Positions 5,872-34,005 of a stretch of DNA of 64,000 bases are shown here, one piece after another. Made by a program: the position numbers and the translations under genes. The number at the start of each line of letters is the position of its first letter. The stretch's first letter is position 1. This stretch comes from Nanobdellota archaeon (GTDB lineage Archaea > Nanobdellota > Nanobdellia > Woesearchaeales > JACPBV01). The notes beneath the pieces were generated by a model. It had not been told where the DNA came from. It did no database searches and saw only the letters and a list, made by a program, of their open reading frames with translations. The DNA is taken from assembly GCA_018813685.1 (NCBI GenBank), contig JAHJAV010000018.1:9576-73575 (forward strand), given 5' to 3'.

Positions 5872-5893
5872 AGAACAAGAAATAATGAATTGT

Positions 5894-6526
5894 TTATTCG
5901 ACATAATTAATCAAGCTTCCAATTCCTTCAATCTTAACTTCTATCTTATCTCCCTTTTGCATAGGGCCAATGCCTTTTGGAGTTCCTGTTGCTATAATGT
6001 CGCCAGGGTTTAGAGTCATTACCTGAGAGATGAAAGAAATGATTTTTTCAACTTTGAATATGAAGTTTGATGTGTTTGAGTCCTGCTTTATTTCCCCATT
6101 AAGATAGGATTGAATCTTTACGTTGTTTGGGTTGATGTTTTTTACTATCTTAGGGCCTATTGGGCAGAATGTATTGAATGATTTTGCTCTTGTCCATTGT
6201 CCGTCTATCTTCTGCAGGTCTCTTGCTGTTACGTCATTTAAGCAGGTATAACCTTCAACATAGTTTAATGCATCTTTTTCTTCTACATCTTTACATGTTT
6301 TTCCTATTATTATTGCGAGCTCTGCTTCATAATCTACTCTTTTGGACATTTTAGGGTAGATTATGTTTTCTTCTGGCCCGATTAGAGCGGTTAGAGGTTT
6401 TATGAAAATGATTGGATGATGAGGAGTGTTCATGCCCAGCTCCTTAGCATGACAATGATAATTTAATCCGACGCAGACTATCTTTGTCGGCTGTTGTTTG
6501 AGAAAGGACAGATTGGACATAATCAT
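5894..6526 (-). CDS. fumarylacetoacetate hydrolase (FAH) family protein
   Basis: VGLNYHCHAKELG and AIIIGK FAH-fold motifs. Confidence 0.75.
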   Translation of the reverse strand: MIMSNLSFLKQQPTKIVCVGLNYHCHAKELGMNTPHHPIIFIKPLTALIGPEENIIYPKMSKRVDYEAELAIIIGKTCKDVEEKDALNYVEGYTCLNDVTARDLQKIDGQWTRAKSFNTFCPIGPKIVKNINPNNVKIQSYLNGEIKQDSNTSNFIFKVEKIISFISQVMTLNPGDIIATGTPKGIGPMQKGDKIEVKIEGIGSLINYVE

Positions 6527-8848: not shown

Positions 8849-9970
8849 TTACAGTTTTTTAACTACAGCATCCCCCATTTCTGAAGTAGTGTTTTTACCG
8901 CCAAGGTCTTTTGTTCTTACTTTTCCTTCTTTCAGGACTGATTCTATGGCTTTTACTATAATTTCTGCTGATTTGGGTTGTCCGATCTCATCTAACATCA
9001 TTGCTCCTGCCCAGATTGTTGCTAATGGATCAGCTATATTCATGCCTTTGTATTTTGGAGCAGAGCCGTGGATAGGCTCAAACATTGAAATTCCTTCTGG
9101 ATTAATGTTTCCGCCTGGTGCTAAGCCTAAGCCGCCTTGTATCATTGCACCTAAGTCTGTTATAATGTCTCCGAACATGTTTGGTGTAATGACTACCTTA
9201 AACCATTCGGGGTTTTTTACAAACCACATTGTGATTGCATCTACAAACATGAATTCGTGCTTTATTTTTGGGTATTGTTTTGCTATTATTTCTACATTCT
9301 CTCTCCAGAATCCGTAGATATCTGAAAGGACATTTGCTTTGTCTACAAAGTAAGCTGTTTCAACTTTTTCTTTTTTAGCTAATTCAAAGCCGTATTTTAT
9401 TACGCGTTGAGCTCCTTGTTTGCTCATTACTCCAATCTGGTAAGCGATCTCATCTGTGTTTTCTATGTCTAGGTTGAATTTTACTTTGTAAAGATCCCTA
9501 ATTACTTCTAATTCCTGCTTGCTTTTTCCTATTTTTGCCCTGTTTCCTATTCCGACATAGAAATCTTCAGTGTTCTCCCTTATAACTGTGAAGTTTATGT
9601 CCTTTGGGCCTTTGCCTTTTAGAGGGCAGTCTACTCCTCCTAATAATTTGATTGGCCTTAAGTTAACGTACTGGTCAAAATAGAATCTTGTCTTTAGCAA
9701 TATTCCTTTTTCTAATATTCCCGGCTTGCATCTTGGATCGCCTAGAGCGCCTAAGTAGATTGCCTTGCAGGTTTGTTTTATCTCTTTTAGAGTTTCTTCT
9801 GTGATAAGTTCGCCTGTTTTTAGGTATTTGTCTGCTCCGTTGTTGTAAGTTACCCAATCTATCTTGAAGTTGTTCTTGTCTGCTACTGCTTCTATTACTT
9901 TAACTCCTTCTGCTATGATTTCTGGGCCTATGCCATCACCTGGCATTTTTGCGATTTTGTAGGTTTTCAT
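8849..9970 (-). CDS. leuB: 3-isopropylmalate dehydrogenase
   Basis: [15 protein letters not shown]-terminus; isocitrate/isopropylmalate dehydrogenase family. Confidence 0.85.
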
Positions 9971-9974
9971 TTTG

Positions 9975-10466
9975 TTATTTGTTTTTCTTTATGTAGTTCA
10001 ACAAACCTCCTGCTTTTATTATGTCAATTGCAAATTTTGGGAATGGAGTGAATTTGAATTCTTTTTTTGTTGTTAAGTTTTTTATTGTTCCTGATTCTAT
10101 GTCTATCTCTAGTTCGTCCTGGTCATTAATGTTTTTTGAAGCGTCTTTAAGCTCTATTGCATAAAAACCGTTGTTTATGCAGTTTCTGAAAAAGATTCTT
10201 GCAAAAGAGCCTGCTATTACTGCTTTTACACCTGAGCCCCTTAATGCCCAGACAGCGTGCTCTCTAGATGAGCCGCAGCCGAAGTTCTCTCCTGCTACGA
10301 TGAAGTCGCCTGGCTTTACTTTTTTTATGAAGGTTTTATCTAAGTCTTCCATTGCGAATTTTGCCAAGTCTGCTTCTTTGTCCATATTCAGGTATCTAGC
10401 TGGAATTATCTCGTCTGTGTTGATGTGGTCTTTTTTGTAGACGTGCGCTTTGCCTTTTAATATCAT
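9975..10466 (-). CDS. leuD: 3-isopropylmalate dehydratase small subunit
   Basis: Aconitase swivel-domain homology. Overlaps the leuC stop. Confidence 0.85.
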
Positions 10467-11737
10467 TTTACATACTTCCTCGGGTCTGCTATCTTTCCTT
10501 CTATTGCTGAAGCTGAGACTGTTGCTGGAGAGGCCAAGTAGACTTTTGATTTTGGATGGCCCATTCTTCCTGTGAAGTTTCTGTTAGTGGTAGAGATACA
10601 TGTTTCTCCTTCTGCTAATATGCCCATATGACCACCTAAACATGCTCCGCATGTTGGTGTTGAAACTGTTGCACCAAATTCCATGAATATGTCTAACAAT
10701 CCTTCTTTATTAGCCTGCTTCCATATATCTGTTGTAGCAGGCACGACTATCATGCGTGTTCCTTTAGCTATTTTTTTTCCTTTTACTATTTGCGCTGCTA
10801 TCCTTAAGTCTTCTATCCTCCCATTTGTACAGCTTCCTAAGTAAGCCTGATCTACCTTTATATCCTGCATCTTGCTTATTTCAGACATTGTTTTTCCGTT
10901 GCTTGGAAGGTCTGGAAATGCTACAATGGGCTCTAGTTTTGAAACATCATATGTTTTAGTTTCTGAGTATTCTGCATCAGGGTCTGATCTGTAGATTTGA
11001 TATTGTGTTTTTGTCCTTTGTTTTACATAATCTTCTGTAGTCTTATCTGGCTCTATTATTCCTGATTTACCGCCTGCTTCTATTGCCATGTTTGTAATAG
11101 TCATCCTAGCTTCCATGCTTAAGCTCTTTATTGTGCTTCCTGTAAATTCCATTGCTTTGTATAAAGCTCCATCTACTCCGATGTCTGAGATTATCTTTAA
11201 GATGATATCCTTAGAGTAAACTCCTTTTGGAAGATTTCCGTTTATTACAAATTTTATTGATTCAGGAACCTTAAACCATAATTCGCCTGTTGAGAGGGCT
11301 GCTGCTAAATCAGTTGAGCCTATTCCTGTTGAGAATGCTCCAAAAGCACCATGAGTGCAAGTATGAGAATCACCACAAACAATTGTTATTCCTGGTACGA
11401 CATGGCCCTGCTCTGGCAAGATAGCGTGACAAACTCCATGCCTGCCTATGTCGTAGAATGTTTCTATCTTGTGTTTTTTTGCCCATTCTCTTATTCTTTT
11501 TACCATGTCTGCACTTTTTATGTCTTTATTTGGGACAAAGTGATCTGGAGTTACAACTACTTTATTGGGATTGAAAACTTTATCAGTGTTAGATTTTTCC
11601 AACATGTCTATAGCAGGTGTTGTAGTAACATCGTGGCACATGACTAGGTCTATCTTAGCATTTATCAATTCTCCTGGCTTTACTTCTTTTTTATTGCAAT
11701 GTTTTGCAAGTATCTTTTCTGTAATTGTTTGTGACAT
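10463..11737 (-). CDS. leuC: 3-isopropylmalate dehydratase large subunit
   Basis: Aconitase family; [14 protein letters not shown] Fe-S ligand region. Confidence 0.9.
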
Positions 11738-11738
11738 T

Positions 11739-12386
11739 TTATTCTCCTATTTGGCAAATGAATATCAGATGATTGACTGTTTTTTTCATAAAACAGCTGT
11801 ATTCATCTATATACTCATTCTTAAGTATTTTATCATTATTAAAAAACCTTTGCATTTCTTCTTTTGTAAAGTAATGGCGGGGAATCTCTTTATCTGGAAT
11901 ATTAAGGCCGATATAAGTTCCGGAAGATATCTCCTTAGTTTCTTTTGTCTTAACCTTTTCAAAAAAATGTATTGAAGGAACGACCAATAAGATTATCCCA
12001 CCTGGTTTTACCACCCTTTTTATCTCTGAAATGTATCTTTCTATTTGTTTTAGGTTTCCATGCGCCAATACGTTAGTTGAAATCAACGTATCAAAAAAAT
12101 TGTCTTCAAAAGGGATTTTTGAGATATCCCCATGGATTATATATTTTGGAGGAAGGTTTTTCTTTTTCAATGATGCTAAGGCGTAATCTGAATTATCTAT
12201 TCCGTAAACTTCAAAGCCTTCCTGCCTTAAATAAAAAAGGTTTCTTCCTATGCCACACCCATGATCCAATATTTTTTTGCAATTGTTGCCTTTTAGTGTT
12301 TTAACTAATTTGGTGACTTCTGGGTGGGGTTTTTCTTCGCCCATCTTTTCTGTCCTTTTTTTGTGAAATTTATCCCATTCTTTCAT
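11739..12386 (-). CDS. class I SAM-dependent methyltransferase
   Basis: [11 protein letters not shown] motif I. Confidence 0.7.
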
Positions 12387-17003: not shown

Positions 17004-18578
17004 TTAGTATTGTGCATGAATCCTGTTTCCTTTTTTATTTCTTTGGAAATTCAATGCTTTGTTCATGCCTTTTATCAATGCTATTGCTGATGCCATCATG
17101 ATATCTTCATTAACTGCTTCTGCCTTGAATATATTTCCTTTTTTGTCCTGGATCTTTATTGATACGTCTGCCAATGCATCTGTGCCGCCAGTGATCGCTT
17201 TAAGACCGTATTCTTTTAATGTGATTGAAGGGTCTATCATTGTGCGTATGGCATGACTAACAGCATCAACAGGACCGACTCCTTTACCAGTCCCTGTTTT
17301 CTTTTTTCCGTCGATGATCAAAGTTACTGCTGCTTCTGGCTGCATCTTGTTTCCTGTTGACACTTTTATCTCATCAAGTTTTATTATCTCCTCATCTTTT
17401 GAAAGTTCTCCTGCAATGTCTGTAGCTATTGCTATGATATCTTCCCGCATGACAACCTTTTGTTTATCAGCAAGCTCTTTTACTTTGATTATTACTTTTT
17501 CAACCTGTTCTTTAGTAAGATCATAACCCATCTCTTTTAAGGCGTTTTCTACTGCATGCTTTCCAGAGTGTTTTCCAATAACAAATGTTGTTCCTATCCA
17601 CCCTATCTCTTCTGGCTTCATTATCTCATAGGTCAACTTGTTCATCAACATACCATGCTGGTGTATGCCTGCTTCGTGGGCAAATGCATTAGATCCTACA
17701 ATTGCCTTGTTTCTCTGAACTGCAATTCCTGTCAATGATGAAACTAATTGTGATGTTTTGAAAATCTCTTTTGTGTTTATTCCGGTTGTTATATCTTTGA
17801 AAAAGTCCTTTCTTGTCTTTAAGTTCATCACTACTTCTTCTAAGCTGCAATTGCCTGCTCTTTCGCCGATGCCGTTTATAGTGCACTCTACCTGAGTTGC
17901 ACCGTTATTTACTGCTTCTAATGAGTTTGCTACAGCCAGGCCTAAGTCATTGTGGCAATGTATGCTTATGACTACTTTGTTTGATTTTATTATGTTATTT
18001 AGCTTTTCGAAAACATATTTTATTCTCTTTCCGAATTCTTCTGGCTCTGCATAGCCTACTGTGTCTGGGATGTTGATTGTGGTTGCTCCTGCTTCGATCA
18101 CTGCTTTGATTATATCACACATGTAGTCTAGGTCTGTTCTTGCAGAGTCTTCTGGGCTGAATTCAATGTCTTTGCACAATGATCTTGCGTGTTTTACTGC
18201 GTCTACTGCCATCTGCATGACTTCTTCTTTTGATTTTCTTAGCTTGTTGTCCATATGCACTTGTGAAGTTGCAATAAAGGTGTGAATTCTAGGTTTTTTT
18301 GAATATTTTACAGCTTCCCATGCCCTGTCAATATCTTCCTTTCTTGTTCTGGCTAATCCGCAGATTATTGGGCCTTTTATTTCTTTAGCGATTAATTTAA
18401 CAGATTCAAAATCACCTTCTGAGCTTATAGGGAAACCTGCTTCAATTACGTCAACTCCTAATTTAGCTAGCTGTTTAGCTACTATAATCTTCTCCTGCAT
18501 TGTCAAGGATGCTCCCGGAGACTGCTCGCCATCCCTTAATGTTGTGTCGAAAATGATTATTTTCTTCATGATGTTCAC
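17004..18578 (-). CDS. leuA: 2-isopropylmalate synthase (or citramalate synthase)
   Basis: IFDTTLRDGEQSPGASL plus HCHNDLGLAVAN, with a C-terminal regulatory domain. Confidence 0.85.
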   Translation of the reverse strand: MNIMKKIIIFDTTLRDGEQSPGASLTMQEKIIVAKQLAKLGVDVIEAGFPISSEGDFESVKLIAKEIKGPIICGLARTRKEDIDRAWEAVKYSKKPRIHTFIATSQVHMDNKLRKSKEEVMQMAVDAVKHARSLCKDIEFSPEDSARTDLDYMCDIIKAVIEAGATTINIPDTVGYAEPEEFGKRIKYVFEKLNNIIKSNKVVISIHCHNDLGLAVANSLEAVNNGATQVECTINGIGERAGNCSLEEVVMNLKTRKDFFKDITTGINTKEIFKTSQLVSSLTGIAVQRNKAIVGSNAFAHEAGIHQHGMLMNKLTYEIMKPEEIGWIGTTFVIGKHSGKHAVENALKEMGYDLTKEQVEKVIIKVKELADKQKVVMREDIIAIATDIAGELSKDEEIIKLDEIKVSTGNKMQPEAAVTLIIDGKKKTGTGKGVGPVDAVSHAIRTMIDPSITLKEYGLKAITGGTDALADVSIKIQDKKGNIFKAEAVNEDIMMASAIALIKGMNKALNFQRNKKGNRIHAQY

Positions 18579-18840
18579 CTTTTGTGTTTAGTTTTATAAA
18601 TCTTTCCTCTGCTTATTTTTATAGCATTATAAAAAGTAAAATTTTATCCGCTGGCCCTTAATTCCTGTTTAAAGAACTAGGGCAATCATAACACCAGAAC
18701 CAATAGAAGTAGAACTAACAAGAATGTAAATGATTTGAACGAGTTAGTTCGTTTCATAATAAGTTAGAATATGGATTTTATATTTAAAGGTTTGTTTTTT
18801 GTTTAGAGTTATAGTAAAAAATCCAAAATTAGTTTATATG

Positions 18841-19013
18841 AAAAACCCAACCACAACATAGGCTTAATGATAGTTTATTTGAAAAAATCCAGCCATCCAT
18901 GACGGCCTACGGACAAAACTTCGTTTTGCCCTACTCGCCACCCCGTAGGGGGCATCCCCCGGCTCGTCTGCGTCATGGCTGGATTTTTTCTCGCCATGTT
19001 GTTGGGTTTTTTA
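18841..19013. repeat. GC-rich structured element B inside a long nested inverted repeat
   Basis: Outer IR aaaaacccaaccacaacat / atgttgttgggttttt; inner IR aaaaaatccagccat(ccat)gacgg / cgtcatggctggatttttt. Core has a caaaac-UUCG-gttttg tetraloop hairpin and a cccc-gta-gggg hairpin. Its 5' and 3' modules match the ends of element A. Confidence 0.55.
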
Positions 19014-19112
19014 AAAATAGAAATGTCGGAAAAGCTTTGCTTTTCTGAGCATTTTAGTTTTTGCTTTGCAAAAACCAAAAGGTTTAAATAGTACCTAACC
19101 TTATCTAGGGTT

Positions 19113-19772
19113 ATGTTAACAAAAAATGTACTTTTATATGAAGAACCGATAAAGAGAATACTCGGAAAAGTAGAGTTAGAAACCATATATAAAAAAATTG
19201 AGGGAAAACAATTGAAACAGGTTGAGATGAACTATCTTTCAAGATCTATCCGCCCTAAATTGATTGCTGCAAGAATGATCTCACAAGAAAATATACTTGA
19301 AAGAATCAACAAAAGAACAAGAAGAGAACAATCTTTAATAGAATTTAACCTATCTAATTATGGATATGAGATGATTTCTATAAAACGCAAAAAGCATAAA
19401 AAGTTACCTATTGAAGAACTGATAGTTGAAATAATCATTAAGTATCCTTCGGCACGTTTTATAGAGGCTATACCTTTTTTGATTATAAAAAATAAAATTG
19501 GGGGATTTAAACTTCTTGAATTAGCCACCAGGTACGGAATCAAGAATAAGGTAGGATATTTAATTGAAACTGTATTTATGATAAGGCCAATTCCACAATT
19601 AAAGGGATTGCTAGATTATTTAATAAAGAATAAAGAAAATGAAATGTCCTTTCTTGTTGAGGGAGATGAGGAATTCCTTAGGAAAACTTCCCCTGAGAGG
19701 GTTAGGAAATGGAATCTGCTTGGAAGATTTTTTGATGAGGACTTTAAAAAACTTGCAAAGGTGTACCTATGA
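19113..19772 (+). CDS. hypothetical protein, upstream partner of a nucleotidyltransferase
   Basis: 219-aa ORF overlapping the next gene by 4 bp (ATGA). Confidence 0.4.
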   Translation: MLTKNVLLYEEPIKRILGKVELETIYKKIEGKQLKQVEMNYLSRSIRPKLIAARMISQENILERINKRTRREQSLIEFNLSNYGYEMISIKRKKHKKLPIEELIVEIIIKYPSARFIEAIPFLIIKNKIGGFKLLELATRYGIKNKVGYLIETVFMIRPIPQLKGLLDYLIKNKENEMSFLVEGDEEFLRKTSPERVRKWNLLGRFFDEDFKKLAKVYL

Positions 19773-20266
19773 TAACCAAAGATGACCTTATAGCCTGGCT
19801 TAAATGTGTGGATAAAAAGCTTAAAAGAAAAATGACAATTATAGCAGTGGGGGGCACTGCAATGACTTTGATAGGGCTAAAATCTTCTACAAGGGATGTT
19901 GATTTTTGTCTCCACTCAGATGACAAAAACGAATTCAAGAAGGCAATTGATAACAAGTTTATAGTAGATTTATTTGTAGACGGCTATATTTTTTCAGAGC
20001 AATTACCCCCTGATTATCTAGAAAAATCTACCAAACTAATCGAGATGGAGCATATTGAATTAAGGGCATTGGACAAGGCAGATATAATAATAACCAAGGC
20101 AGCCAGGCTAAATGCTCGGGATGAAGAAGATATCAAGGCCCTAGCCAAATATGTAAACAAAGAAGAGCTTATCAAAAGATTTAATGATGTATTAGAAACA
20201 TATGCTGGAAACGAAGAAGATTTTAAATATCATTTTTCATTAATTGTCAAGCGGTTTTTTAATTAA
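19769..20266 (+). CDS. minimal nucleotidyltransferase (Pol-beta superfamily)
   Basis: VGGTAMTLIGLKSSTRDVDF matches the hG[GS]x9-13Dh[DE]h nucleotidyltransferase motif. Confidence 0.5.
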   Translation: MITKDDLIAWLKCVDKKLKRKMTIIAVGGTAMTLIGLKSSTRDVDFCLHSDDKNEFKKAIDNKFIVDLFVDGYIFSEQLPPDYLEKSTKLIEMEHIELRALDKADIIITKAARLNARDEEDIKALAKYVNKEELIKRFNDVLETYAGNEEDFKYHFSLIVKRFFN

Positions 20267-20276
20267 TGCTCTAGAC

Positions 20277-20537
20277 TTATCTTTCCAAGAAATCTTCAAT
20301 TTCTTTCTTTTTTTCTATATTGAGGGATATGTGAATTTCATGGGTTTTCATGTATTTATTGATAAAATCCAGCCTATATAATTCTTCCAGGGCATCTTTT
20401 GTTTCTTTTCTACCTATGAGATGTTTAGGCAGGCCTTTGAACAGGTTTCTTTCTTCTGTGTGAGATGCGCCCCATTTTGGCGGAGCAAAATTTCTTAGTT
20501 TTCTGATGAAGAATTTCTGCAGTGCTTTCTTTCCCAT
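20277..20537 (-). CDS. hypothetical small protein
   Basis: 86-aa basic ORF, no motif recognised. Confidence 0.3.
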   Translation of the reverse strand: MGKKALQKFFIRKLRNFAPPKWGASHTEERNLFKGLPKHLIGRKETKDALEELYRLDFINKYMKTHEIHISLNIEKKKEIEDFLER

Positions 20538-20631
20538 AATATTGGTAAATCCGAATTGATATTTTAATGTAGTGTATATTTTTGATACATTAGTGTTTCA
20601 AAACGAAACATTTAAATAATAGCATGGATTA

Positions 20632-20970
20632 ATGATTGATACAATGGAACAAACACTATTTGTAAAGTTCTTAGGAGATTCGCCTAAGATAAGAGTTTTG
20701 GACGTGCTTATAACAGGAAGAGAGCTAGATTACAGCATATCTGATATAGCCCAGCAGGCAGGAATAGGGAGGGCTACTTTCTACAGGATGATGGATGAGC
20801 TGTTAAAGAATAAGGTAATTATGCTTACGAGGAAATTTGGGAATATACAGCTTTACAAGCTAAACATAGAGAATGAATATGTAAAGGCACTTGTAAAGAT
20901 GTATGACAATATTGCAAAGGCAGCTTCTGAGAAAGAGATTAAACGGCAGAAAATGGTTTTGACGGTTTAA
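20632..20970 (+). CDS. winged-helix DNA-binding protein (paralog of 47364-47705)
   Basis: Shares GRELDYSISDIA..AGIGR.T..R....L....VI...R..GN..LY.LN.EN..VK with the second copy. Confidence 0.5.
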   Translation: MIDTMEQTLFVKFLGDSPKIRVLDVLITGRELDYSISDIAQQAGIGRATFYRMMDELLKNKVIMLTRKFGNIQLYKLNIENEYVKALVKMYDNIAKAASEKEIKRQKMVLTV

Positions 20971-20979
20971 ACATAGAAA

Positions 20980-21333
20980 TTATTTTTCTTCCTGTTCCAG
21001 TTCTGATACGATTTTCTTCAGCTTTGGCTTTAAGCTAGGGATTTCGGTTTTCATAGCTGACCAGACAAGGTTGTAGTCTATGCCAAAGTATGCATGAATC
21101 AATCTGTCCCTCATTCCAGCCATTGATTTCCATTGTATTTCTTTGTAATTATCCTTTATTTTAGAGGGTATATGCTTTGCGGCTTCTCCGATTATCTCAA
21201 ATTTTCTGATAACTGCACTGGATGTCTTTTCATCTGCTTTGAGCTCTTCAAGAGCCATACTGCCTACAAACTCTTCAATTGATTCCATGGCAGCGATAAT
21301 ATCCTTAATGAAAAGGTTATAATCTCTTTTCAT
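20980..21333 (-). CDS. hepT: HEPN-domain toxin HepT (DUF86)
   Basis: RDRLIHAYFGIDYNLVW contains the Rx4HxY HEPN motif. Confidence 0.75.
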   Translation of the reverse strand: MKRDYNLFIKDIIAAMESIEEFVGSMALEELKADEKTSSAVIRKFEIIGEAAKHIPSKIKDNYKEIQWKSMAGMRDRLIHAYFGIDYNLVWSAMKTEIPSLKPKLKKIVSELEQEEK

Positions 21334-21632
21334 ACCTTAACCACCTCTTTAAGGATATTATTTTTCAATTCAGGCCTTATGCCCCCTTCAGAAACAACAT
21401 CTACCTTAATCTTCAGCTTTTCTTCAAGATAATTTCCAAGCCCGACAAAATCAAATAGAGTTGCTTTTGGATTGAATTTTACGAGAATGTCCACATCGCT
21501 TGACTTTTTCTGCTGCCCCCTTGCATAAGAGCCGAATATGCCAAGTTCCCTGACTTTATACTTTTTTTTCAGTTCGCCTTTGCTTGAAGCAAGAAGCGCC
21601 TGGATCTGCTTTAATCTTTTCATTTTATCCAT
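21330..21632 (-). CDS. mntA: minimal nucleotidyltransferase antitoxin MntA
   Basis: GIFGSYARGQQKKSSDVDILV (GSx9-13DxD). 4-bp overlap with hepT. Confidence 0.8.
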   Translation of the reverse strand: MDKMKRLKQIQALLASSKGELKKKYKVRELGIFGSYARGQQKKSSDVDILVKFNPKATLFDFVGLGNYLEEKLKIKVDVVSEGGIRPELKNNILKEVVKV

Positions 21633-21685
21633 ATAATGCGCTGAAAGGATTAGCCTTATTTAATCTTTTTGTTTCTTAATGCCCT

Positions 21686-21707
21686 AGAATTCTTTCGAAC
21701 TTTAATG
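21686..21707. repeat. 22-bp direct repeat, copy 1 (partial duplicate of the 3' end of gene 22509-22805)
   Basis: agaattctttcGaactttaatg. On the minus strand it reads ...TLKFERILGH stop, mirroring the LKFERILEH stop end of the intact gene. Confidence 0.6.
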
Positions 21708-21773
21708 TTACATAATCGATATTTTCTGGTTTGCAGCTGAACATTTATATATAAGCCAGCCCCATAGGTATTT

Positions 21774-22130
21774 ATGAACATATTTTTGGTTAGAAGGGTA
21801 AGAAAGTTTGTAAAGCAAAACAGAATACAGACTACTAAAGATTTTAGAAAGGATTTTTACAATCATAAATTTGATGAAAAAGATATTAAAGAGACATTAA
21901 TAAAAGGGGTTCATCTTAAAAATAGTGAATTATACCCTAATCCTGAAAGGTATGTATCAAAATTTTATGCTATAAACCAAATTTTTATGAGGCATATCCT
22001 GATTGGATATGATATCTATAAAGACCATATAACCCTGATACATACAAGCCCAGCAGGCAATTGGGAGATAAACCAATACAAAAAAGAGAGACGATTACTA
22101 AAACGGGGATTTATAGGACTTTTCCTTTAA
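21774..22130 (+). CDS. hypothetical protein inside the DR-bounded cassette (possible toxin-like)
   Basis: 118-aa ORF convergent with, and overlapping by 20 bp, the zinc-ribbon gene. Confidence 0.35.
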   Translation: MNIFLVRRVRKFVKQNRIQTTKDFRKDFYNHKFDEKDIKETLIKGVHLKNSELYPNPERYVSKFYAINQIFMRHILIGYDIYKDHITLIHTSPAGNWEINQYKKERRLLKRGFIGLFL

Positions 22131-22440
22131 AGAATTCTATTTCATGGGTTGGAGAAATAAAACAACCTTTGATCTTTGCCCATAAGGAAGGATGCAATTC
22201 CTTTCTAACCCTTTCTGCTTCTTTTAAAGATGAAAATGTTTCTCCGCATTTTTTACATTCTAGGACTTCAATAGGAATACTTTTTCCCCCAGACATAACT
22301 ATATCTTTGGTCTCTACTAAATTCCCTTTGCAGAAATCACAAACTCTCTTTTTTTTCAAGTTGATGCACCTCTTGATAGATTTACCTAGATTGAAACTAT
22401 TTAAATCTTTCTTTATATCGGTTCTTTTTGTATTTGACAT
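22111..22440 (-). CDS. YgiT/MqsA-type zinc-ribbon protein (antitoxin-like, no HTH)
   Basis: CDFCKGNLVETKDIVMSGGKSIPIEVLECKKCGETFSSLKEAE matches the YgiT-type zinc-finger pattern C-x2-C ... C-x2-CGE. Confidence 0.5.
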   Translation of the reverse strand: MSNTKRTDIKKDLNSFNLGKSIKRCINLKKKRVCDFCKGNLVETKDIVMSGGKSIPIEVLECKKCGETFSSLKEAERVRKELHPSLWAKIKGCFISPTHEIEFFKGKVL

Positions 22441-22508
22441 TTTATGTTAGTATTTTAGGGTAGTGATTGTTATATAAAAATCTTTCTAAATTTATGTTTC
22501 TCTAATGG

Positions 22509-22805
22509 TCAATGCTCAAGAATTCTTTCAAACTTTAATGCGCGTTCTCTTAAACATTCTTTTTTGGCTGTTGCTGCAAATGACTTATAGACTTCGCCTT
22601 TGAACTTGCAGGCTAAAGGGTTGTTGCAGAGGTTGATTATACCTGTGATGCCTGTCATGTACTGGCATGTTTCTTTTGTGTTTAGGGAATTGATGTAATG
22701 GTCGGAATCTTCCTGTTTCTCGTGAAGAAGATTTTGTATTTTTAACTCTCTAAAAGAATGCTGCCTATCTTTAATCCTTTCAAGACTAGCCTGTAAATCC
22801 GGCAT
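22509..22805 (-). CDS. hypothetical protein (98 aa)
   Basis: ORF whose last 9 codons plus stop are duplicated about 840 bp away. Confidence 0.4.
   Translation of the reverse strand: MPDLQASLERIKDRQHSFRELKIQNLLHEKQEDSDHYINSLNTKETCQYMTGITGIINLCNNPLACKFKGEVYKSFAATAKKECLRERALKFERILEH
22524..22545. repeat. 22-bp direct repeat, copy 2 (encodes the C-terminus of gene 22509-22805)
   Basis: agaattctttcAaactttaatg, 21/22 identical to copy 1. Confidence 0.6.
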
Positions 22806-22951
22806 CTATACACCCCCTATTCTTTGCAATATAGCAAGTAATTGGTATATTTAAAGGTTGCGGAATTGGGGTGGGAAAAGAGTAAAAATTGGGTTTGGTA
22901 GGTGTTAAATTCAATAAAATTTCCATTTCTGAATGATAAAAACAGCGGAGT

Positions 22952-23797
22952 TCAGTGCTTCGCATATTGAGAATTCCTAACAACTGTAGCTGCCAAATGG
23001 AAAGATTGATCTTGTGTCGCAAACCAATATACTTTTCGAGACAGGGGATTTTCCTCATGAAAGTAACTCAAAGCTTGAGCTGATTCATCACATCTAACCA
23101 CGAGTTCATCTCCAAATAGCCTATTCCTTGGTATTACCACATCATGAGCGCCAGGTGTGATTATATTCGGTTTCACATTTCTTCGAAAATATTCTGATGC
23201 TCCATTTGGATCCACCATTCTATGTATGTTTTCATACTCTATTCTATTCATTGTTCTTACAGCACCATCTATAAAAAAATCCTTTGTTCCATGGGCTGGA
23301 AACGCATTAGATGGGGGAGTAGCATTCATATCAACTCGAAAACCAACTGCCGATTCAGGGGGTATATCTCCAATATGAAACAGAGTATAAGCAGGAATTG
23401 TTTTTTCAGGATCATAATGCTCAAGTGGAAAATCTCTCTCATCTAATCCATTAAGAAGCACCACATGGATTGGATTTTCATCCAAAGCAAATACGCCCCT
23501 TCGTGTAAGAAAATCAACCTGACCACCAAGAAATTTAATCCTTCCATTATACAATTGATCCAATATTAGGGTGAGATCTCCTTGATGGTGAAATGATTGG
23601 AGAGTAGCTTGAGCTTGCCCTTCACTCACCAGAAAAAGTTCCTGACTTACACCAGCCGGATTTCGGGCAATCACATCTAATACTTGATGTAATCTTCTTT
23701 CTTGAATATGATACATAAGCGATTCTGTAACCTGTGGAATTGCAATCCTAACAGATGGATCTGCATTTCGTTCACTACCAGTAAAGATTACAGCCAT
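22952..23797 (-). CDS. hypothetical protein with atypical (higher GC, low Lys/Ile) composition
   Basis: 281-aa ORF whose codon usage is visibly different from neighbours. No confident family assignment; likely horizontally acquired. Confidence 0.45.
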   Translation of the reverse strand: MAVIFTGSERNADPSVRIAIPQVTESLMYHIQERRLHQVLDVIARNPAGVSQELFLVSEGQAQATLQSFHHQGDLTLILDQLYNGRIKFLGGQVDFLTRRGVFALDENPIHVVLLNGLDERDFPLEHYDPEKTIPAYTLFHIGDIPPESAVGFRVDMNATPPSNAFPAHGTKDFFIDGAVRTMNRIEYENIHRMVDPNGASEYFRRNVKPNIITPGAHDVVIPRNRLFGDELVVRCDESAQALSYFHEENPLSRKVYWFATQDQSFHLAATVVRNSQYAKH

Positions 23798-23965
23798 ATT
23801 CCTAATAAGATTGAAACAGACTAATAAATCTTTTGGTTTTTTCCGTCACTCCTATCTATCAAAGGTTGGGCCTTACCAAAATATTGCTGAAAACTCCCCC
23901 TGACTACTTGTTATTGATGTGACACTTGGCTTAATATAAAGAACTGAACTCCCCCTAAAAATATA

Positions 23966-23982
23966 GTCTGCCTTCGGCAGAA
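23966..23982 (-). terminator. UUCG-tetraloop hairpin downstream of leuS
   Basis: ctgcc-ttcg-ggcag stem-loop followed on the minus strand by a T-rich tract. Confidence 0.4.
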
Positions 23983-24038
23983 TTGATTGGAAATGGAAAT
24001 TTTACTTTTCGGAACGAAATTTAACAAAAATCCTTAAC

Positions 24039-26699
24039 TTACTCAACCAAAATCGCCGGCTTAGAAGGCGCTGCGTTTCCTGCCTTAGCTTCTTTGCTGT
24101 CTTCTGCTTTTTCAATCTCTATAGTGCAATTAAACTCCTTAGAAATCAATTCTTTGCTTTCTACTAGGTCTTTGAATTCGATTTCCTGACTTAAGACTTC
24201 TGAAGGTATTTTAGAAGGGTCTTTAAGTAAGGATGGAATTATTTTTGAAATGTCATTGCCGTGTTTCTTTAGGTCTGGGTTGGATAAGCATGCTGTCATC
24301 AGCTGTTTCATATCACGAGTTTTCTCTAGCTCTTTCTTGAAGATGTTAAAGAATGAATACTTCCATTTGGGTGAAACTATCAGTTTGATGCTTTTGGGAT
24401 TCTCTACCTTTATTAGTTTCAAAACATTGGCTATGTCTGATATTGTTTTTGAAATCATCTCTTCAAGGGCTTCTAGTTTAGAGTCTATCTTACTTTTGTC
24501 AAACTCAGGCCATTTTGCCAAAGAGCAGAATGGCTTATTGCCTAAATAAGACCATAATTCCTCACATATATGCGGTGTAAATGGGCTCATCAATAAAACT
24601 AATTTAGAAGCAGATTCTTTTGAGATGGTCTCTCTGTTATTAAGCCAATTGGTAAACTGCATAAGGGAGATTATTGCTTTGTTAAAGAGCATCTCACTTA
24701 AATATTCAGTTACTTCTTTTATTGTCTTGTTAAGTTTGCTTGCTTCTTTTGCATCTATTGCAGAAACAATCTTCTTTTCAGAAATAAGAGAATAAAACTT
24801 ATTCAAAAATCTAAAGCTGCCTTCAATGCCTTCATCGCTCCATTCCATGTCCTTGTCAGGAGAAGCTACAAAAAGTAAGAATAATCGAGCAGTATCAATG
24901 CCATATTTTGCACCAATCTCTTCTGGAACAACAACATTGCCTTTGCTTTTGGACATTACAATGCCTTCCTTATGGAGCATGCCCTGGTTAAACAATCTAG
25001 GACAAGGTTCATCTATCTTAAGCAAGCCTAAATCCCTGAAGAATTTTGTAAAGAATCTAAAATAGATCAGATGCATTGTAGCGTGCTCTTTTCCGCCTAT
25101 GTACATGTCAATAGGCATCCAATAAGCTGCTTTTTTAGGATCAAATGGCTGTTTATCATTCTTGGAATCACAATAACGAAGGAAATACCATGAAGAATCT
25201 ACAAAAGTGTCCATTGTGTCTGTTTCTCTTTTAGCTTTTCCTTTGCATTTAGGACAAACAGTATTAACAAAATCTGTGCAATGCTCTAAAGGATTTCCTT
25301 CTCCTGCTGTAAACTTAAAATCATCAGGAAGCTTAACAGGCAAATCATTTTCAGGAATAGGAACTATGCCACATTTAGAGCAATAAACTATTGGAATTGG
25401 ACAGCCCCAAAATCTTTGCCTGGAAATCAACCAATCACGAAGCTTATACTGAGTTGTTGCTTTTCCACATTTGTATTTTTCAAAGAATTTTATTATAGAA
25501 GGAATCGCTTCTCTATTGTTGCTTCCATCAAATTCCTGAGAATTAACCATGTTTCCATCGCCAATGTAAGCACGGCCCATCTTTTCTGGATTTAGATCAT
25601 AATCAGGGGGATTTATTACAATTTTAATCGGAATCTTATATTTTTTAGCAAATTCAAAATCTCTTTGGTCATGAGCAGGCACGGCTATGATAGCGCCTGC
25701 ACCATATTCGTAAAGGACAAAATTAGCGATATAGATTGGAATCTTTTCTTTAGTAACTGGATTTATTGCATATTTTCCTATAAACACACCTTCTTTTTCC
25801 TTGTCTTCTGCTGTTCTTGAAAACCTATCTTCAAGAACAACTTTTTTTATGAAATCTTTTACATCTTTTTCATATTTTGTGCCTTTAACCAATTCAGTAA
25901 CATCAGGGTGTTCAGGAGCATAAACCAAGAAAGTGATGCCAAAGAATGTATCAGGACGGGTAGTAAACACTGTAAGTACTTTATCTGAACCGTCTATCTT
26001 AAAGTCAATAAGAGCGCCTTCACTTTTGCCCATCCAATTGCGCTGCATCAATTTAACGTCTTCTGACCATCCTTTTAATTTGTCAATATCATTGAGCAAT
26101 TCTTCTGCATAGTTTGTTATCTTAAAGAACCATTGGTCTAAATCCTTTATTTCTACAGGAGTGTCTTCATGGCGCCAGCATTTTCCATCATGAACCTGCT
26201 CATTTGCTAAAACAGTGCTGCATTTTGGGCACCAGTTAACAGCTGATCTTCTTTTATAGACTAATCCTTTTTCATACATCTTTAAGAAAATCCACTGGTC
26301 CCATCTGTAGTAAGAAGGATCATGTGACATTAAAACTCTAGACCAATCATAGCTTAAGCCAAGAGCTTTCTGCTGCCTTATAAAATTCTTTATAGCTTCT
26401 TCTGTGAATATTTTAGGATGTGATTTTGCTTTTATAGCTGCGTTTTCAGCTGGCAATCCAAAAGAATCATAGCCCATCGGATAAAGGACATTAAAGTTAT
26501 TCATCCTTTTGTATCGTGCAAATGCATCGCCAATGCAATAATTACGGGCATGGCCCATATGTAATCCAGAACCGGATGGGTAAGGGTACATCTCAAGAAC
26601 ATAACATTTTTTCTTTTTATAGTCTTCATGAACTTCAAATATCTTTGAAGATTCCCATTCTTTCTGCCATTTAACTGCTATCTCGTTGAAATTAACCAT
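24039..26699 (-). CDS. leuS: leucyl-tRNA synthetase (archaeal type)
   Basis: HMGHARNY (HIGH) and VMSKSKGN (KMSKS) motifs. Acidic/Lys-rich C-terminal tail. Confidence 0.9.
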   Translation of the reverse strand: MVNFNEIAVKWQKEWESSKIFEVHEDYKKKKCYVLEMYPYPSGSGLHMGHARNYCIGDAFARYKRMNNFNVLYPMGYDSFGLPAENAAIKAKSHPKIFTEEAIKNFIRQQKALGLSYDWSRVLMSHDPSYYRWDQWIFLKMYEKGLVYKRRSAVNWCPKCSTVLANEQVHDGKCWRHEDTPVEIKDLDQWFFKITNYAEELLNDIDKLKGWSEDVKLMQRNWMGKSEGALIDFKIDGSDKVLTVFTTRPDTFFGITFLVYAPEHPDVTELVKGTKYEKDVKDFIKKVVLEDRFSRTAEDKEKEGVFIGKYAINPVTKEKIPIYIANFVLYEYGAGAIIAVPAHDQRDFEFAKKYKIPIKIVINPPDYDLNPEKMGRAYIGDGNMVNSQEFDGSNNREAIPSIIKFFEKYKCGKATTQYKLRDWLISRQRFWGCPIPIVYCSKCGIVPIPENDLPVKLPDDFKFTAGEGNPLEHCTDFVNTVCPKCKGKAKRETDTMDTFVDSSWYFLRYCDSKNDKQPFDPKKAAYWMPIDMYIGGKEHATMHLIYFRFFTKFFRDLGLLKIDEPCPRLFNQGMLHKEGIVMSKSKGNVVVPEEIGAKYGIDTARLFLLFVASPDKDMEWSDEGIEGSFRFLNKFYSLISEKKIVSAIDAKEASKLNKTIKEVTEYLSEMLFNKAIISLMQFTNWLNNRETISKESASKLVLLMSPFTPHICEELWSYLGNKPFCSLAKWPEFDKSKIDSKLEALEEMISKTISDIANVLKLIKVENPKSIKLIVSPKWKYSFFNIFKKELEKTRDMKQLMTACLSNPDLKKHGNDISKIIPSLLKDPSKIPSEVLSQEIEFKDLVESKELISKEFNCTIEIEKAEDSKEAKAGNAAPSKPAILVE

Positions 26700-28199: not shown

Positions 28200-28223
28200 T
28201 TTGTTTAGATTATGAATATTTTA

Positions 28224-28309
28224 TGCGAGGGACGGGATTCGAACCCGCGCAGGCACTAAGCCATACGGCCCTCGACCGTATCCGTTTGACCAGGCTCCGG
28301 CACCCTCGC
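28224..28309 (-). tRNA. tRNA-Leu (anticodon GAG), type II with long variable arm
   Basis: Minus-strand read: gcgaggg acceptor; anticodon stem tacgg/ccgta with loop tcGAGgg; T-arm gcggg-ttcgaat-cccgt; 86 nt. Confidence 0.85.
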
Positions 28310-28351
28310 AATGTTGAGACGCCATAAATTGGCTTTGCCAATTTAATGTCA

Positions 28352-31561: not shown

Positions 31562-31633
31562 GGTGGCCATAGTTTAGTGGTAGAATACAGGACTGTGGAT
31601 CCTGTGGCCCGAGTTCGATTCTCGGTGGCTACC
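31562..31633 (+). tRNA. tRNA-His (anticodon GUG) with encoded G-1
   Basis: G-1 then acceptor gtggcca/tggctac; anticodon stem cagga/tcctg with loop ctGTGga; T-arm ccgag-ttcgatt-ctcgg; discriminator C. Confidence 0.8.
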
Positions 31634-33677: not shown

Positions 33678-34005
33678 TAGGCAGGGCTGGAATAAGCCAC
33701 CTTTTGTCAGATGATTTCCATCTGTCTTAGCATTTAACTAAGCGTTTTAAAAACTTGCACCGGTCAGGTCTCGCCGTTTCATCCATTCCTCTTAGAGCGT
33801 CTGTCGGTTAACTCAGTTACGTTGCCGTAACCTTCTCGACTTTCATCCTCCTAAAAGGGGGTCTCGTTTCTGTGCGGTTGCCGCACATTGCTGCACCTTC
33901 TTTATGAAGTGACCATAATAGCCAGAGGCTATTGGTGGGTGGACTTTCCTCAGTTCGTACTTACATTGCTGTAAGGAACCGTTAGCTAAGTACCTTCCCT
34001 GCCTA
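33678..34005 (-). ncRNA. rnpB: RNase P RNA
   Basis: Minus strand has GAGGAAAGUCCACC (CR-I / P4 5' strand, plus 33941-33951) and ACAAAAGGUGGCUUA (CR-V / P4 3' strand, plus 33691-33704); they pair with the conserved bulged U. P1 terminal helix aggcaggg/ccctgcct. GC-rich island about 328 nt. Confidence 0.7.

Follow-up and report, generated by a model that had tools for sequence, protein, structure and literature searches.

Two questions are raised by the gap between leuA and leuS in this tiny-genome DPANN archaeon of the Woesearchaeal lineage: whether the small gene cassettes packed into it form one accessory island, and what kind of system is encoded by a two-gene unit within it, a 219-aa protein followed by a nucleotidyltransferase (NTase). 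The window, by which we mean the whole 64,000-nt stretch of DNA analysed, holds ten ORFs in this block, two 4-bp overlaps among them, and two public annotations, made independently on near-identical contigs, call the same genes. From the sequence comparisons described below, we lean slightly toward a reading in which the pair would be an AbiE/MenAT-like toxin-antitoxin system with a new antitoxin family, and the slot a hotspot of cassettes. What is new here is the 219-aa family, which has no Pfam model, as a candidate antitoxin.

A variable slot between leuA and leuS

In seven related contigs leuS and leuA are adjacent (LeuS 68-84% identical), and the gap between them ranges from 0.74 to 6.4 kb with a different gene content each time. 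None of the genes for the 219-aa protein, the DUF6036 NTase, the 86-aa and wHTH proteins, HepT/MntA, or the 118-, 109- and 281-aa proteins is found at the slot in these seven contigs. One relative (L041) carries a different MNT/HEPN set and an RHH protein there, and the only block gene that recurs in the slot of close relatives encodes a 98-aa protein. Because the neighbouring genes are kept, the cargo of the gap is variable and the 98-aa gene alone recurs, the block is an accessory hotspot; and since neither an integrase nor a tRNA lies at the block boundary, it is not one island but a mosaic in which each small cassette is independent. We hold it highly probable that the slot is a variable mosaic of this kind. 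The accessory island proposed in an earlier, sequence-only reading of this DNA is thus accessory, as the synteny comparison of the seven relatives indicates, with a mosaic in place of the single island. In evolutionary terms, the slot would have gathered, around a single resident gene, several small selfish cassettes that are independent of each other.

That resident gene encodes the 98-aa Cys-containing protein (22509-22805, minus strand). It is a neighbour of leuS that recurs beside it in four relatives, and does not count among the cargo of the block. Its homologues (54-70% identical) lie between leuS and leuA in three relatives (L037, L040, L043); in L080, whose contig stops short of leuA, the homologue is downstream of leuS. 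A 30-nt direct repeat (27/30 identical, against a best match of 23/30 in 60 shuffles) involves the end of this gene: the proximal copy (22511-22540) is its true 3' end, encoding LKFERILEH*, and homologues in relatives terminate ...ILEH*, while the distal copy (21678-21707) is a displaced pseudo-3' end, encoding LKFERILGH* on the minus strand. Inside the repeat-bounded cassette are two convergent ORFs with a 20-bp overlap, neither of which has viral relatives: a 118-aa ORF (21774-22130, plus strand) and a 109-aa zinc-ribbon protein (CxxC...CxxC; 22111-22440, minus strand) with sub-threshold matches to a YgiT/MqsA-type zinc finger and to DUF7479.

The left edge of the cargo is marked by element B (18881-18990), outside every cassette, and the expectation that it brackets the block on this side is borne out. 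Element B is a hairpin, GC-rich and about 110 nt long, whose 16-nt terminal inverted repeats are perfect (MFE -49.1 kcal/mol, z -6.0); it has no Rfam match, occurs once in the window, and is absent from the corresponding site in relatives.

An ordinary HepT/MntA pair and its neighbours

The gene pair at 20980-21632 is an ordinary MntA/HepT type VII toxin-antitoxin system, which it fits in its Pfam families, both motifs, gene order and overlap. The HepT-like HEPN RNase toxin (20980-21333, minus strand, 117 aa) matches PF01934 (E 3e-29) and carries the Rx4HxY motif as RDRLIHAY; its score of 39.7 against the NCBIfam equivalog is under the cut-off of 60. The MntA-like minimal nucleotidyltransferase antitoxin (21330-21632, minus strand, 100 aa) matches PF01909 (E 1e-16) and PADLOC PDC-S09 (E 2e-31), carries the GSx10DxD motif as GSYARGQQKKSSDVD, and is encoded upstream of HepT with a 4-bp overlap. 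The motifs and Pfam matches uphold the canonical pair of the earlier reading, whose ORFs, two 4-bp overlaps and 30-nt direct repeat are likewise all present as described.

This arrangement bears on a reading of the 219-aa/DUF6036 pair with reversed roles, as an inverted MNT/HEPN type VII system in which the NTase would be an MntA-like antitoxin and the 219-aa helical protein the toxin. A minimal NTase is the antitoxin in the adjoining HepT/MntA, as in MNT/HEPN systems generally (PMC12988326), and the 219-aa protein has a C-terminal domain formed by an all-helical bundle. HepT/MntA differs from the 219-aa/DUF6036 pair in that the order is reversed, the NTase belongs to another family, and the 219-aa partner has no Rx4-6H motif. 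We regard the reversed roles as quite improbable.

Two further small genes lie nearby. The 112-aa HTH protein (20632-20970, plus strand) is probably winged-helix; it had been called a wHTH regulator, and its HTH matches, including that to a PADLOC Csa3-type HTH (E 7.6e-7), are sub-threshold only. A homologue lies close to a HepT/MntA pair in L083. The 86-aa basic ORF (20277-20537, minus strand), called in both public annotations, matches no family in profile searches and has no homologue across about 1 Mb of related loci.

The 219-aa/DUF6036 pair as a mobile cassette

The 219-aa protein (19113-19772, plus strand), a putative antitoxin/autoregulator with an N-terminal HTH-like and a helical C-terminal domain, is encoded with a 4-bp ATGA overlap ahead of a 165-aa DUF6036 (PF19502) Pol-beta-type nucleotidyltransferase (19769-20266, plus strand), the putative toxin. 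The pair is seen only in Woesearchaeota/Nanoarchaeota MAGs. In a survey of 28 species-level loci (one genome per species), which was seeded with the 219-aa protein and so counts only loci that carry its gene, the NTase lies directly downstream of the 219-aa gene at 26, with the ATGA overlap at 21, and has been lost from two. The same two-gene layout occurs in three further contexts. Across species, conservation is high (45-70% identity), and identity to the window copies co-varies between the two proteins (r 0.80).

The neighbours of the pair are different in every locus examined, the rest of the window's genes are all absent from its other loci, and at several loci the cassette lies amid other toxin-antitoxin modules. 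Long direct repeats flank it in four genomes: in L007 an intact rlmH-like gene lies on one side of it and, on the other, 87 nt copied from the 3' end of the rlmH-like gene, and in L013, L017 and L026 it has other flanking repeats of 45-146 nt, that of L013 including part of the promoter region. The cassette is self-contained, spans about 1.2 kb and brings its own promoter; the pair is probably a mobile toxin-antitoxin-like module. A lineage-specific housekeeping pair, such as an RNA-modifying enzyme with a specificity or regulatory subunit, would not be selfish; the level of identity across species would suit it, and a housekeeping setting has been noted for one DPANN MNT-HEPN fusion (PMC6393860). 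It agrees poorly with a pair known from just 28 loci, set among changing neighbours, accompanied by the rlmH-like copy or other flanking repeats, missing at the slot in the window's closest relatives, and deprived of its NTase at two loci. We consider a housekeeping role very improbable.

The region upstream of the cassette (19083-19113, plus strand) would act as promoter and operator, as we infer from its sequence. A TATA-like TTTAAATA at 19083-19090 is followed at 19096-19113 by the near-palindrome TAACCTTA-tc-TAGGGTTA, the last base of which is the A of the start codon. The layout is kept in the other 26 loci, where the promoter ATAGAAAnnTTTAWATATAAC precedes a palindrome TAACCTTA-N2-4-TAAGGTTA that abuts the ATG, with compensatory changes in both arms (AACC/GGTT, AATC/GATT, AACT/AGTT). 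Perfect arms of at least 7 nt occur in 7/27 loci, compared with 4% among upstream regions used as controls, although the loci are related by descent and these statistics are therefore not independent.

A possible relationship to AbiE and MenAT

The 165-aa protein, described in the earlier reading as a minimal Pol-beta nucleotidyltransferase, does contain GGTAMTLIGLKSSTRDVDF and belongs to a named Pfam family, DUF6036 (48.7 bits, cut-off 23.6; E 1e-12). All of its 21 aligned homologues also pass this threshold, and 19 match DUF2204 (PF09970) as well. DUF6036 and DUF2204 are nucleotidyltransferases without a described role, and DUF6036 has no described partner; no paper in the literature searched mentions DUF6036, and the single one there that mentions DUF2204 is unrelated. 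In the alignment, G28, G29, D45, D67, K110, R113, R117 and D118 are invariant and D43, E120 and D121 nearly so, giving the motifs GG, DxD, D67, K110-x6-R117 and R117-D-E-E-D121; by this alignment the catalytic motif set is intact. These motifs parallel motifs I, II, III (K173/R180, at the same spacing) and IV (+DxxD) of AbiEii, all four of which are needed for AbiEii toxicity (PMC3985639). The correspondence could be convergent, since motifs III and IV are contiguous in the NTase and 12 residues apart in AbiEii. AbiEii matches are weak among the aligned homologues (2/21, E 0.07), a profile search of PDB sequences with the NTase returned neither MenT nor AbiEii, and PADLOC AbiE models do not match the pair. 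Bacterial DUF6036 proteins match the AbiEii Pfam family sub-threshold (E 3.9e-4), their genes are preceded by that of a small partner, which overlaps or abuts them, and hhalign aligns the NTase with a Burkholderia plasmid DUF6036 protein at a probability of 97%.

An NTase this small and minimal, with an HTH partner, a palindromic operator and a patchy, mobile distribution, might instead act on small molecules, inactivating an antibiotic or modifying a metabolite in the manner of the Lnu/ANT resistance NTases, which are of comparable size, with the 219-aa protein a repressor or sensor and the pair spreading through usefulness and not addiction. Yet it matches no NCBIfam ANT/Lnu family even at E <= 1, its K-x6-R and +DxxD motifs resemble those of RNA-directed toxins, several of its loci lie among toxin-antitoxin modules, and the strictly conserved ATGA coupling and protein co-variation are more in keeping with a stoichiometric partnership than with a repressor and its enzyme. 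We think such an activity unlikely.

The 219-aa protein had been reported as being without a known family, and it indeed has no match in Pfam (AbiEi families included), NCBIfam, PADLOC or PHROGs. Its AF2 model has two domains, and the best structural match, also of the highest Foldseek probability among the matches, is Rv2827c, an AbiEi homologue whose gene lies beside the DUF1814 gene rv2826c.

AbiE, the abortive-infection system known from both Streptococcus agalactiae and Lactococcus, was originally classed as type IV and, in a 2026 preprint, as type VII; abiEi and abiEii overlap by 4 nt and are autoregulated through inverted repeats (PMC3985639, PMC7319586), and DPANN archaea are enriched in AbiE systems (PMC12988326). 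With AbiE the pair shares a two-gene operon in which the DNA-binding partner (a predicted activity of the 219-aa protein) comes first and a Pol-beta-type NTase second, the 4-nt overlap, a two-domain partner whose N-terminus would bind DNA, followed by a C-terminal domain, promoter inverted repeats, the four NTase motifs and a location on mobile DNA. It differs in its NTase (DUF6036 of 165 aa with fused motifs III and IV, against DUF1814 of about 290 aa with the two separate) and in its partner, which falls outside AbiEi/COG5340 and has an HTH like sigma-70 region 4/LuxR, unlike the winged helix of AbiEi. In MenAT of Mycobacterium tuberculosis (MenT1-4 and MenA), related NTase toxins have unrelated upstream antitoxins, and the DUF6036 partners vary likewise: 219 aa in Woesearchaeota, about 97 aa for those encoded by bacterial plasmids, and an HTH-HVO_2833_C protein in Halolamina. 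Within DUF6036, the Woesearchaeal clade has a 219-aa partner of its own and shorter NTases (165 aa, against about 204 aa in bacterial members). The pair resembles a remote archaeal relative of the bacterial AbiE/MenAT systems. Its gene order, earlier thought unusual, is the reverse of MNT/HEPN and normal for AbiE/MenAT-type NTase toxins, in which the regulator or antitoxin gene precedes that of the NTase with a 4-nt overlap (PMC3985639), which makes the pair one of an already known type; what stands of the suggested undescribed NTase module is a conserved mobile cassette whose NTase family is missing from the literature searched.

Whether the two proteins have specifically AbiE/MenAT-like roles is, by this analogy, an even call. 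If they do, we infer a toxic NTase that would, like MenT and AbiEii, add nucleotides onto tRNA 3' ends or other RNA and stall translation. MenT modifies the tRNA acceptor stem and undergoes antitoxin-induced auto-phosphorylation (PMC7450476, PMC10435456, PMC11375011), activities that could be carried over to DUF6036 by extrapolation only. The upstream, translationally coupled 219-aa protein would be the antitoxin, its C-terminal helical domain neutralising the NTase, possibly through induced auto-phosphorylation as in MenA/AbiEi, while repression of the operon would fall to its N-terminal HTH, bound to the palindrome overlapping the transcription start.

The leuS side of the block

On the leuS side, a UUCG-hairpin terminator had been proposed. 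A terminator-like hairpin does lie at 23967-23981 (minus strand), about 58 nt past the leuS stop, with 6 bp followed by a T-run, CTATATTTTT; its loop is GAA and not UUCG on the minus strand, from which leuS is transcribed, its folding is no different from shuffles, and terminator-like matches in the region show no excess (4 against 3.7 in shuffles). The 281-aa protein (22952-23797, in fact encoded by the minus strand) matches nothing in Pfam, NCBIfam, PADLOC or PHROGs, as its description as unassignable implied; its family is rare, includes bacterial members and has a beta-sandwich fold. The clearly higher GC once attributed to its gene, and with it a foreign composition, does not hold up: its GC of 0.390 against 0.362 +/- 0.032 for 57 other window ORFs is a z of only +0.9, GC3 is unusually low (0.227, z -2.1), and the excess is owed to amino-acid composition, being concentrated at first codon positions (GC1 0.571).

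A mobile two-gene cassette

The 219-aa gene (19113-19772, plus strand) and the 165-aa nucleotidyltransferase (NTase) gene behind it (19769-20266, plus strand) overlap by 4 nt in an ATGA, as the sequence-only reading had proposed, and we find that the two make up a discrete mobile unit, a cassette about 1.2 kb long. Homologues of the 219-aa protein number 184, with identities of 45-70%, and the named sources are all Woesearchaeota/Nanoarchaeota MAGs. Both the pairing and the coupling of the two genes are conserved. In a survey of one genome per species, which recovered 28 loci, a DUF6036 gene lies immediately 3' of the 219-aa gene in 26; among the 25 paired loci in which the ends of both ORFs could be set, 21 show the ATGA overlap, which is also present in the loci L002-L008; and the two proteins co-vary in their identity to the window copies (r 0.80). 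At two loci, L025 and L028, the 219-aa gene stands alone, the NTase having been lost from beside it. The first 33 residues of the 219-aa protein (window 19113-19211) are conserved, with G18, E21 and G31 invariant, so the 219-aa start is right and the 186-aa start of one public annotation (contigs L001, 2510-3070, and L099, 11026-11586), which falls 33 codons late, is too short. The same annotation shortens the 109-aa ORF of the window to 82 aa and the 112-aa ORF to 108 aa.

The neighbours of the pair are different at every locus examined, and the window's other genes recur at none. In four genomes (L007, L013, L017 and L026) the pair is flanked by imperfect direct repeats of 45-146 nt, unrelated in sequence between genomes, and the unit carries no recombinase. 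In L007 an intact rlmH-like gene lies on one side of the pair and, on the other, an 87-nt copy of the 3' end of that gene, 93% identical (7857-7943 and 9163-9249). The repeats of L013 (51 nt, a promoter-like stretch; 5912-5962 and 7168-7218), L017 (45 nt, the 3' end of an 1822-aa gene; 5870-5914 and 7154-7198) and L026 (146 nt; 5757-5902 and 7238-7381) are 89-93% identical and lie 8-100 nt from the ends of the unit. These ends are sharp, with a conserved promoter on the left and a right end 8-60 nt past the NTase stop. Varied neighbours and flanking repeats thus identify the pair as a mobile cassette. Around the copy in the window itself we found no direct repeats; a 16-nt match at 18879/20359 was rejected as a cassette repeat, being at the level estimated for chance.

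The long flanking duplications raise a separate question, that of how small cassettes insert without a recombinase. To our knowledge, the known prokaryotic transposases do not give long, variable-length target duplications of this kind; fill-in of widely staggered breaks would fit them. A like pattern is seen elsewhere in the window, at the cassette of the 118-aa and 109-aa ORFs, where 30 nt from the 3' end of the 98-aa gene are duplicated. On a reading that strikes us as highly improbable, the 219-aa HTH protein and its DUF6036 NTase would themselves be the mobility machinery of a minimal 1.2-kb element, and a general, undescribed insertion route would serve small cassettes in DPANN genomes of this kind.

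Upstream of the cassette a conserved sequence, ATAGAAAnnTTTAWATATAAC, is followed by a palindrome, TAACCTTA-N2-4-TAAGGTTA, that lies between the TATA box and the ATG and ends 0-2 nt before the latter. In the window, the TATA-like TTTAAATA is at 19083-19090 and the palindrome, TAACCTTA-tc-TAGGGTTA, at 19096-19113, both on the plus strand. The two arms change jointly across lineages (AACC/GGTT, AATC/GATT, AACT/AGTT), and perfect arms of at least 7 nt are found at 7 of 27 loci; control upstream regions have them in 4% of cases and shuffles in 6%. Archaeal repressors act at symmetric sites over the expected transcription start, and we infer that the 219-aa protein binds this palindrome.

The AF2 model of the 219-aa protein is confident (pLDDT 87.6) and all-helical; in it a flexible linker joins an N-terminal domain to a C-terminal bundle. 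A Foldseek search of the PDB with this model gave nothing significant; Rv2827c had the highest probability (0.41) and TM-score among the non-significant matches, which is suggestive only of a link in fold. Profile searches of PDB sequences with the 219-aa and NTase families returned chance-level matches alone, and Pfam matched no family in 39 diverse members of the 219-aa family. Weak HVO_2833_C matches in 5 of the 39 (best E 0.031) were set aside because hhalign of the family against a Halolamina HTH-HVO_2833_C protein was non-significant (E 0.075). The two bacterial upstream partners, each about 97 aa long, likewise gave no significant alignment, and on these hhalign results we claim no link between the partner families. 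An HEPN RNase is ruled out, since no His is conserved in the family. The pair also departs from the MNT/HEPN arrangement, in which an HEPN partner with Rx4-6H lies downstream of the MNT.

The DUF6036 nucleotidyltransferase and its relatives

The 165-aa protein, in which the motif GGTAMTLIGLKSSTRDVDF noted earlier is indeed present, belongs to Pfam DUF6036 (score 48.7 bits, cut-off 23.6; aligned over positions 15-150 of the 164 in the model), and all 21 NTase homologues compared match the same model. Its active site is intact: the NTase keeps G28 G29, D43xD45, D67, K110, R113, R117, D118 and D121, and across the 21 sequences G28 G29 and D45 are invariant and D43 nearly so, in agreement with AbiEii-type motifs I (hG[GS]) and II (DhD). 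T30, T33, S40 and T41 are invariant too and are candidate phosphorylation sites. The K110-x6-R117 spacing equals that of AbiEii K173/R180, and R117-D118-E-E-D121 fits +DxxD, resemblances of pattern that could be convergent. By family assignment the protein is not an AbiEii, which would call for DUF1814 (PF08843; COG2253 or COG4849): Pfam returned only DUF6036 and DUF2204 for the window NTase, and AbiEii matches appeared in just 2 of the 21 homologues (E 0.07).

The window NTase has homologues in the DUF6036 proteins of Burkholderia and Cupriavidus plasmids (hhalign probability 97%), which match the AbiEii Pfam model at E 3.9e-4 and 3.4e-3, below its gathering score. Upstream of each of their genes, overlapping or abutting it, lies the gene of a small, unrelated partner. 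On the Cupriavidus basilensis plasmid pRK1-2 (L102, 2622-6320), the DUF6036 gene and its partner adjoin a DUF6884 gene and lie about 1.4 kb from a gene for an IscB RNA-guided endonuclease, surroundings consistent with a mobile-element neighbourhood. On the Halolamina sp. CBA1230 plasmid pCBA1230-02 (L103, 2018-3834), an HTH-HVO_2833_C gene overlaps by 4 nt the gene for an unannotated 289-aa protein. The upstream product (316 aa) has a double HTH and an HVO_2833_C domain (E 3e-52), and the 289-aa protein carries N-terminal GG...DxD motifs like those of the DUF6036 clade (hhalign probability 95%). The locus may represent the regulator-plus-NTase layout in haloarchaea.

Resemblance to AbiE and MenAT and a proposed mechanism

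In AbiE, the gene order throughout the family is regulator first and NTase second, abiEi overlaps abiEii by 4 nt, AbiEi autoregulates, and all four AbiEii motifs, I (hG[GS]), II (DhD), III (K173...R180) and IV (+DxxD), are required for toxicity (Dy et al., PMC3985639). AbiE systems are further defined by a toxin that inhibits growth, an antitoxin that neutralises it, and phage protection or plasmid stabilisation. The cassette shares the bicistronic form, the regulator-first order and the 4-nt overlap. Its conserved promoter palindrome would be a counterpart of the promoter inverted repeats through which AbiE regulates itself negatively, and K110-x6-R117 and R117-D-E-E-D121, contiguous here, may correspond to motifs III and IV. 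The unrelated upstream partners found on DUF6036 NTases recall MenA1 and MenA3, unrelated partners swapped on related NTases (PMC11375011). The toxin candidate of the pair is not DUF1814, and its partner matches no family of the COG5340/AbiEi type, in which an N-terminal winged HTH is joined to a C-terminal domain; a strict test places the pair outside AbiE. We have therefore filed it, by analogy, as a pair that would work like AbiE/MenAT without being a member of AbiE.

By analogy with AbiEii and MenT (PMC7450476, PMC10435456 and a 2026 AbiEii preprint), the DUF6036 NTase would act as a toxin by nucleotidylating RNA, with tRNA 3' ends as the likeliest target, the 219-aa protein would neutralise it through its C-terminal domain, and the HTH of the same protein would repress the operon at the palindrome. 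We infer toxicity, target, neutralisation and DNA binding in this way from the likeness to those systems. Three rival readings, each with evidence against it, are less probable: a small-molecule NTase under the control of a repressor, a pair in which the roles of toxin and antitoxin are reversed, and a housekeeping pair, against which neighbours that differ from locus to locus speak. Under the AbiE/MenAT-like reading, the gains from the cassette would be an antitoxin family that is new, a candidate toxin family in DUF6036, extending the AbiE/MenAT world into archaea, and a short, well-defined and directly testable operator and promoter; should the NTase act on tRNA, it would offer a first handle on such a mechanism in archaeal translation.

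DPANN archaea have few CRISPR or restriction systems and seemingly rely on compact toxin-antitoxin (TA) and abortive-infection modules, and AbiE is reported to be enriched among them (PMC12988326). Nevertheless, PADLOC, the Pfam AbiE models and NCBIfam all miss the cassette, which is invisible to current defence and TA detectors. The archaeal "dark matter" and archaeal defence surveys do not describe the pair, and in the literature searched we found no mention of DUF6036 and a single, unrelated one of DUF2204.

The leuA-leuS slot as an accessory hotspot

The slot of this DPANN archaeon that holds the cassette is bounded by leuA (17004-18578, minus strand) and leuS (24039-26699, minus strand). 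All ten ORFs that the sequence-only reading placed there are present, and two independent annotations of near-identical contigs also call them. Its view of the block as accessory stands: in relatives, which are metagenome contigs found with a LeuS search and onto whose matches the window proteins were mapped, the block is not conserved. The order leuS then leuA is kept in seven relatives (LeuS 68-84% and LeuA 77-91% identical to the window), with ilvB next where the contig is long enough. The gap between them is 742 bp in L059, 1.6 kb in L040, 2.3 kb in L043, 2.5 kb in L038, 4.9 kb in L037 and 6.4 kb in L041, compared with 5.5 kb in the window. The cargo is different each time; among it are an rlmH-like gene, genes for secreted or membrane proteins, one for a flavodoxin-like protein and one for a GTPase, and L041 has a BRO-like protein and, at 8851-11922, a wHTH-MNT fusion with HEPN, an RHH protein and an ATPase. 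The window's cargo genes are absent from these relatives save for the 98-aa gene, homologues of which lie between leuS and leuA in L037, L040 and L043; in L080, a contig that stops before leuA, the homologue is downstream of leuS. Since the synteny of the block is not conserved, the slot is an accessory hotspot, mosaic around a resident 98-aa gene.

Variable presence between conserved flanks is a classical criterion of a genomic island, and it is what the relatives display. The classical marks of an island, namely deviant composition, an integrase and a tRNA/att boundary, were not found for the block as a whole: Pfam and NCBIfam searches revealed no integrase family among its genes, there is no tRNA at its borders, repeats flank only an 833-bp sub-cassette, and in GC and codon usage none of the ten genes departs from the window by more than about 2 sd or is a compositional outlier. 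Rfam, at gathering and E-value thresholds, gave no RNA family in 18560-24060, and PADLOC and PHROGs returned only noise for the 219-aa, NTase, 86-aa, 118-aa, 98-aa and 281-aa proteins. The synteny result portrays accessory genes packed into fixed slots between housekeeping genes in such genomes, and TA-type modules appear to be concentrated in a few of these slots. Among the loci with a 219-aa gene, L002 (9251-16516) also has a PIN/RHH pair, an HEPN gene and an MNT gene, and L025 (4771-5857) and L026 (7470-8634) each have a wHTH-MNT fusion with HEPN.

Other genes of the slot

The HepT/MntA pair (within 20980-21632, minus strand) is canonical, as had been recognised: HepT (PF01934, E 3e-29) has the HEPN Rx4-6H motif as RDRLIHAY, MntA (PF01909, E 1e-16) has the MNT GSx10DxD motif as GSYARGQQKKSSDVD, and the MntA gene lies upstream and overlaps that of HepT by 4 bp. 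NCBIfam equivalog scores of 39.7 and 46.1 are below the cut-off of 60, so by its sequence the pair is classed as a member of the HepT/MntA type VII TA family and not as the named equivalog.

The 30-nt direct repeat (21678-21707 and 22511-22540) was also confirmed, with 27/30 positions identical against 23/30 in the best of 60 shuffles. The proximal copy is the true 3' end of the 98-aa gene (...LKFERILEH*), matching relatives, and the distal copy (...LKFERILGH*) is a displaced pseudo-copy. The 833 bp between the repeat starts hold convergent ORFs of 118 aa and 109 aa, the latter with a zinc ribbon; both are without a family and have no homologue in about 1 Mb of related DNA. Scans of viral contigs with the 219-aa family and these two ORFs found no relatives.

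For the 281-aa gene, which lies on the minus strand, the suggestion of a compositionally foreign origin did not hold. Its GC is 0.390 against 0.362 +/- 0.032 (z +0.9) and its GC3 0.227 (z -2.1), the slightly higher GC being due to first codon positions, i.e. to amino-acid content. A word-indexed search of 5.8 billion clusters returned only the protein itself; an exhaustive phmmer search of 1.84 billion representatives found 15 proteins, one at 43% identity and the others at 25-35%. A profile search with the family yielded 2 proteins only, and Pfam had no significant match to its aligned members. Among the named sources are a Phycisphaerae bacterium and a bacterium with genetic code 4; one member is on a 4.66-Mb contig. 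A distant homologue lies between POR and aromatic amino-acid genes, an uninformative context. The AF2 model, a good one (14 sequences; pLDDT 82.3, pTM 0.86), is a beta-sandwich. The gene is real, and its family is rare and patchy in distribution; that distribution makes a horizontal origin plausible, and composition gives no sign of one.

Features beside the slot genes

Upstream of leuA, a tiny ORF (18686-18757, minus strand) is conserved in the window and six related contigs. It has 23-25 codons, with a variable N-terminal half and an end of 11-13 consecutive Leu/Val/Ile codons that show synonymous changes; in the window its product is MKRTNSFKSFTFLLVLLLLVLVL*. The ORF is preceded by a TATA-like box (promoter near 18780-18797), and 3' of it (18579-18685) come an imperfect hairpin, with weak covariation support, T-runs and, about 25 nt before leuA, another TATA-like box. 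From its sequence, the ORF looks like an ilv/leu-type leader peptide (attenuator), which we believe to be unusual in archaea; it could instead encode a small membrane peptide.

"Element B" (18881-18990) is a strongly folding, GC-rich hairpin of about 110 nt (folding z -6.0). It has perfect 16-nt terminal inverted repeats (GAAAAAATCCAGCCAT / ATGGCTGGATTTTTTC), occurs once in the window, has no Rfam match and is missing at this site in relatives; either a small mobile element of hairpin type or the gene of a small RNA may be present here. L037 has a comparable GC-rich palindromic insert elsewhere upstream of leuA (core GGGGGTCGCCCCC, ends AAAAAATCC). Of the UUCG-hairpin terminator proposed after leuS, the hairpin and T-run are there, and on the leuS strand the loop is GAA, not UUCG; terminator-like matches of hairpin plus T-run are no commoner in the region than in shuffles. 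Further along the window, ARAGORN called an 88-nt tRNA-Leu(GAG) at 28223-28310, which the Rfam tRNA model at its gathering threshold did not report, while reporting a tRNA-His at 31563; an archaeal RNase P RNA lies at 33684-33999.
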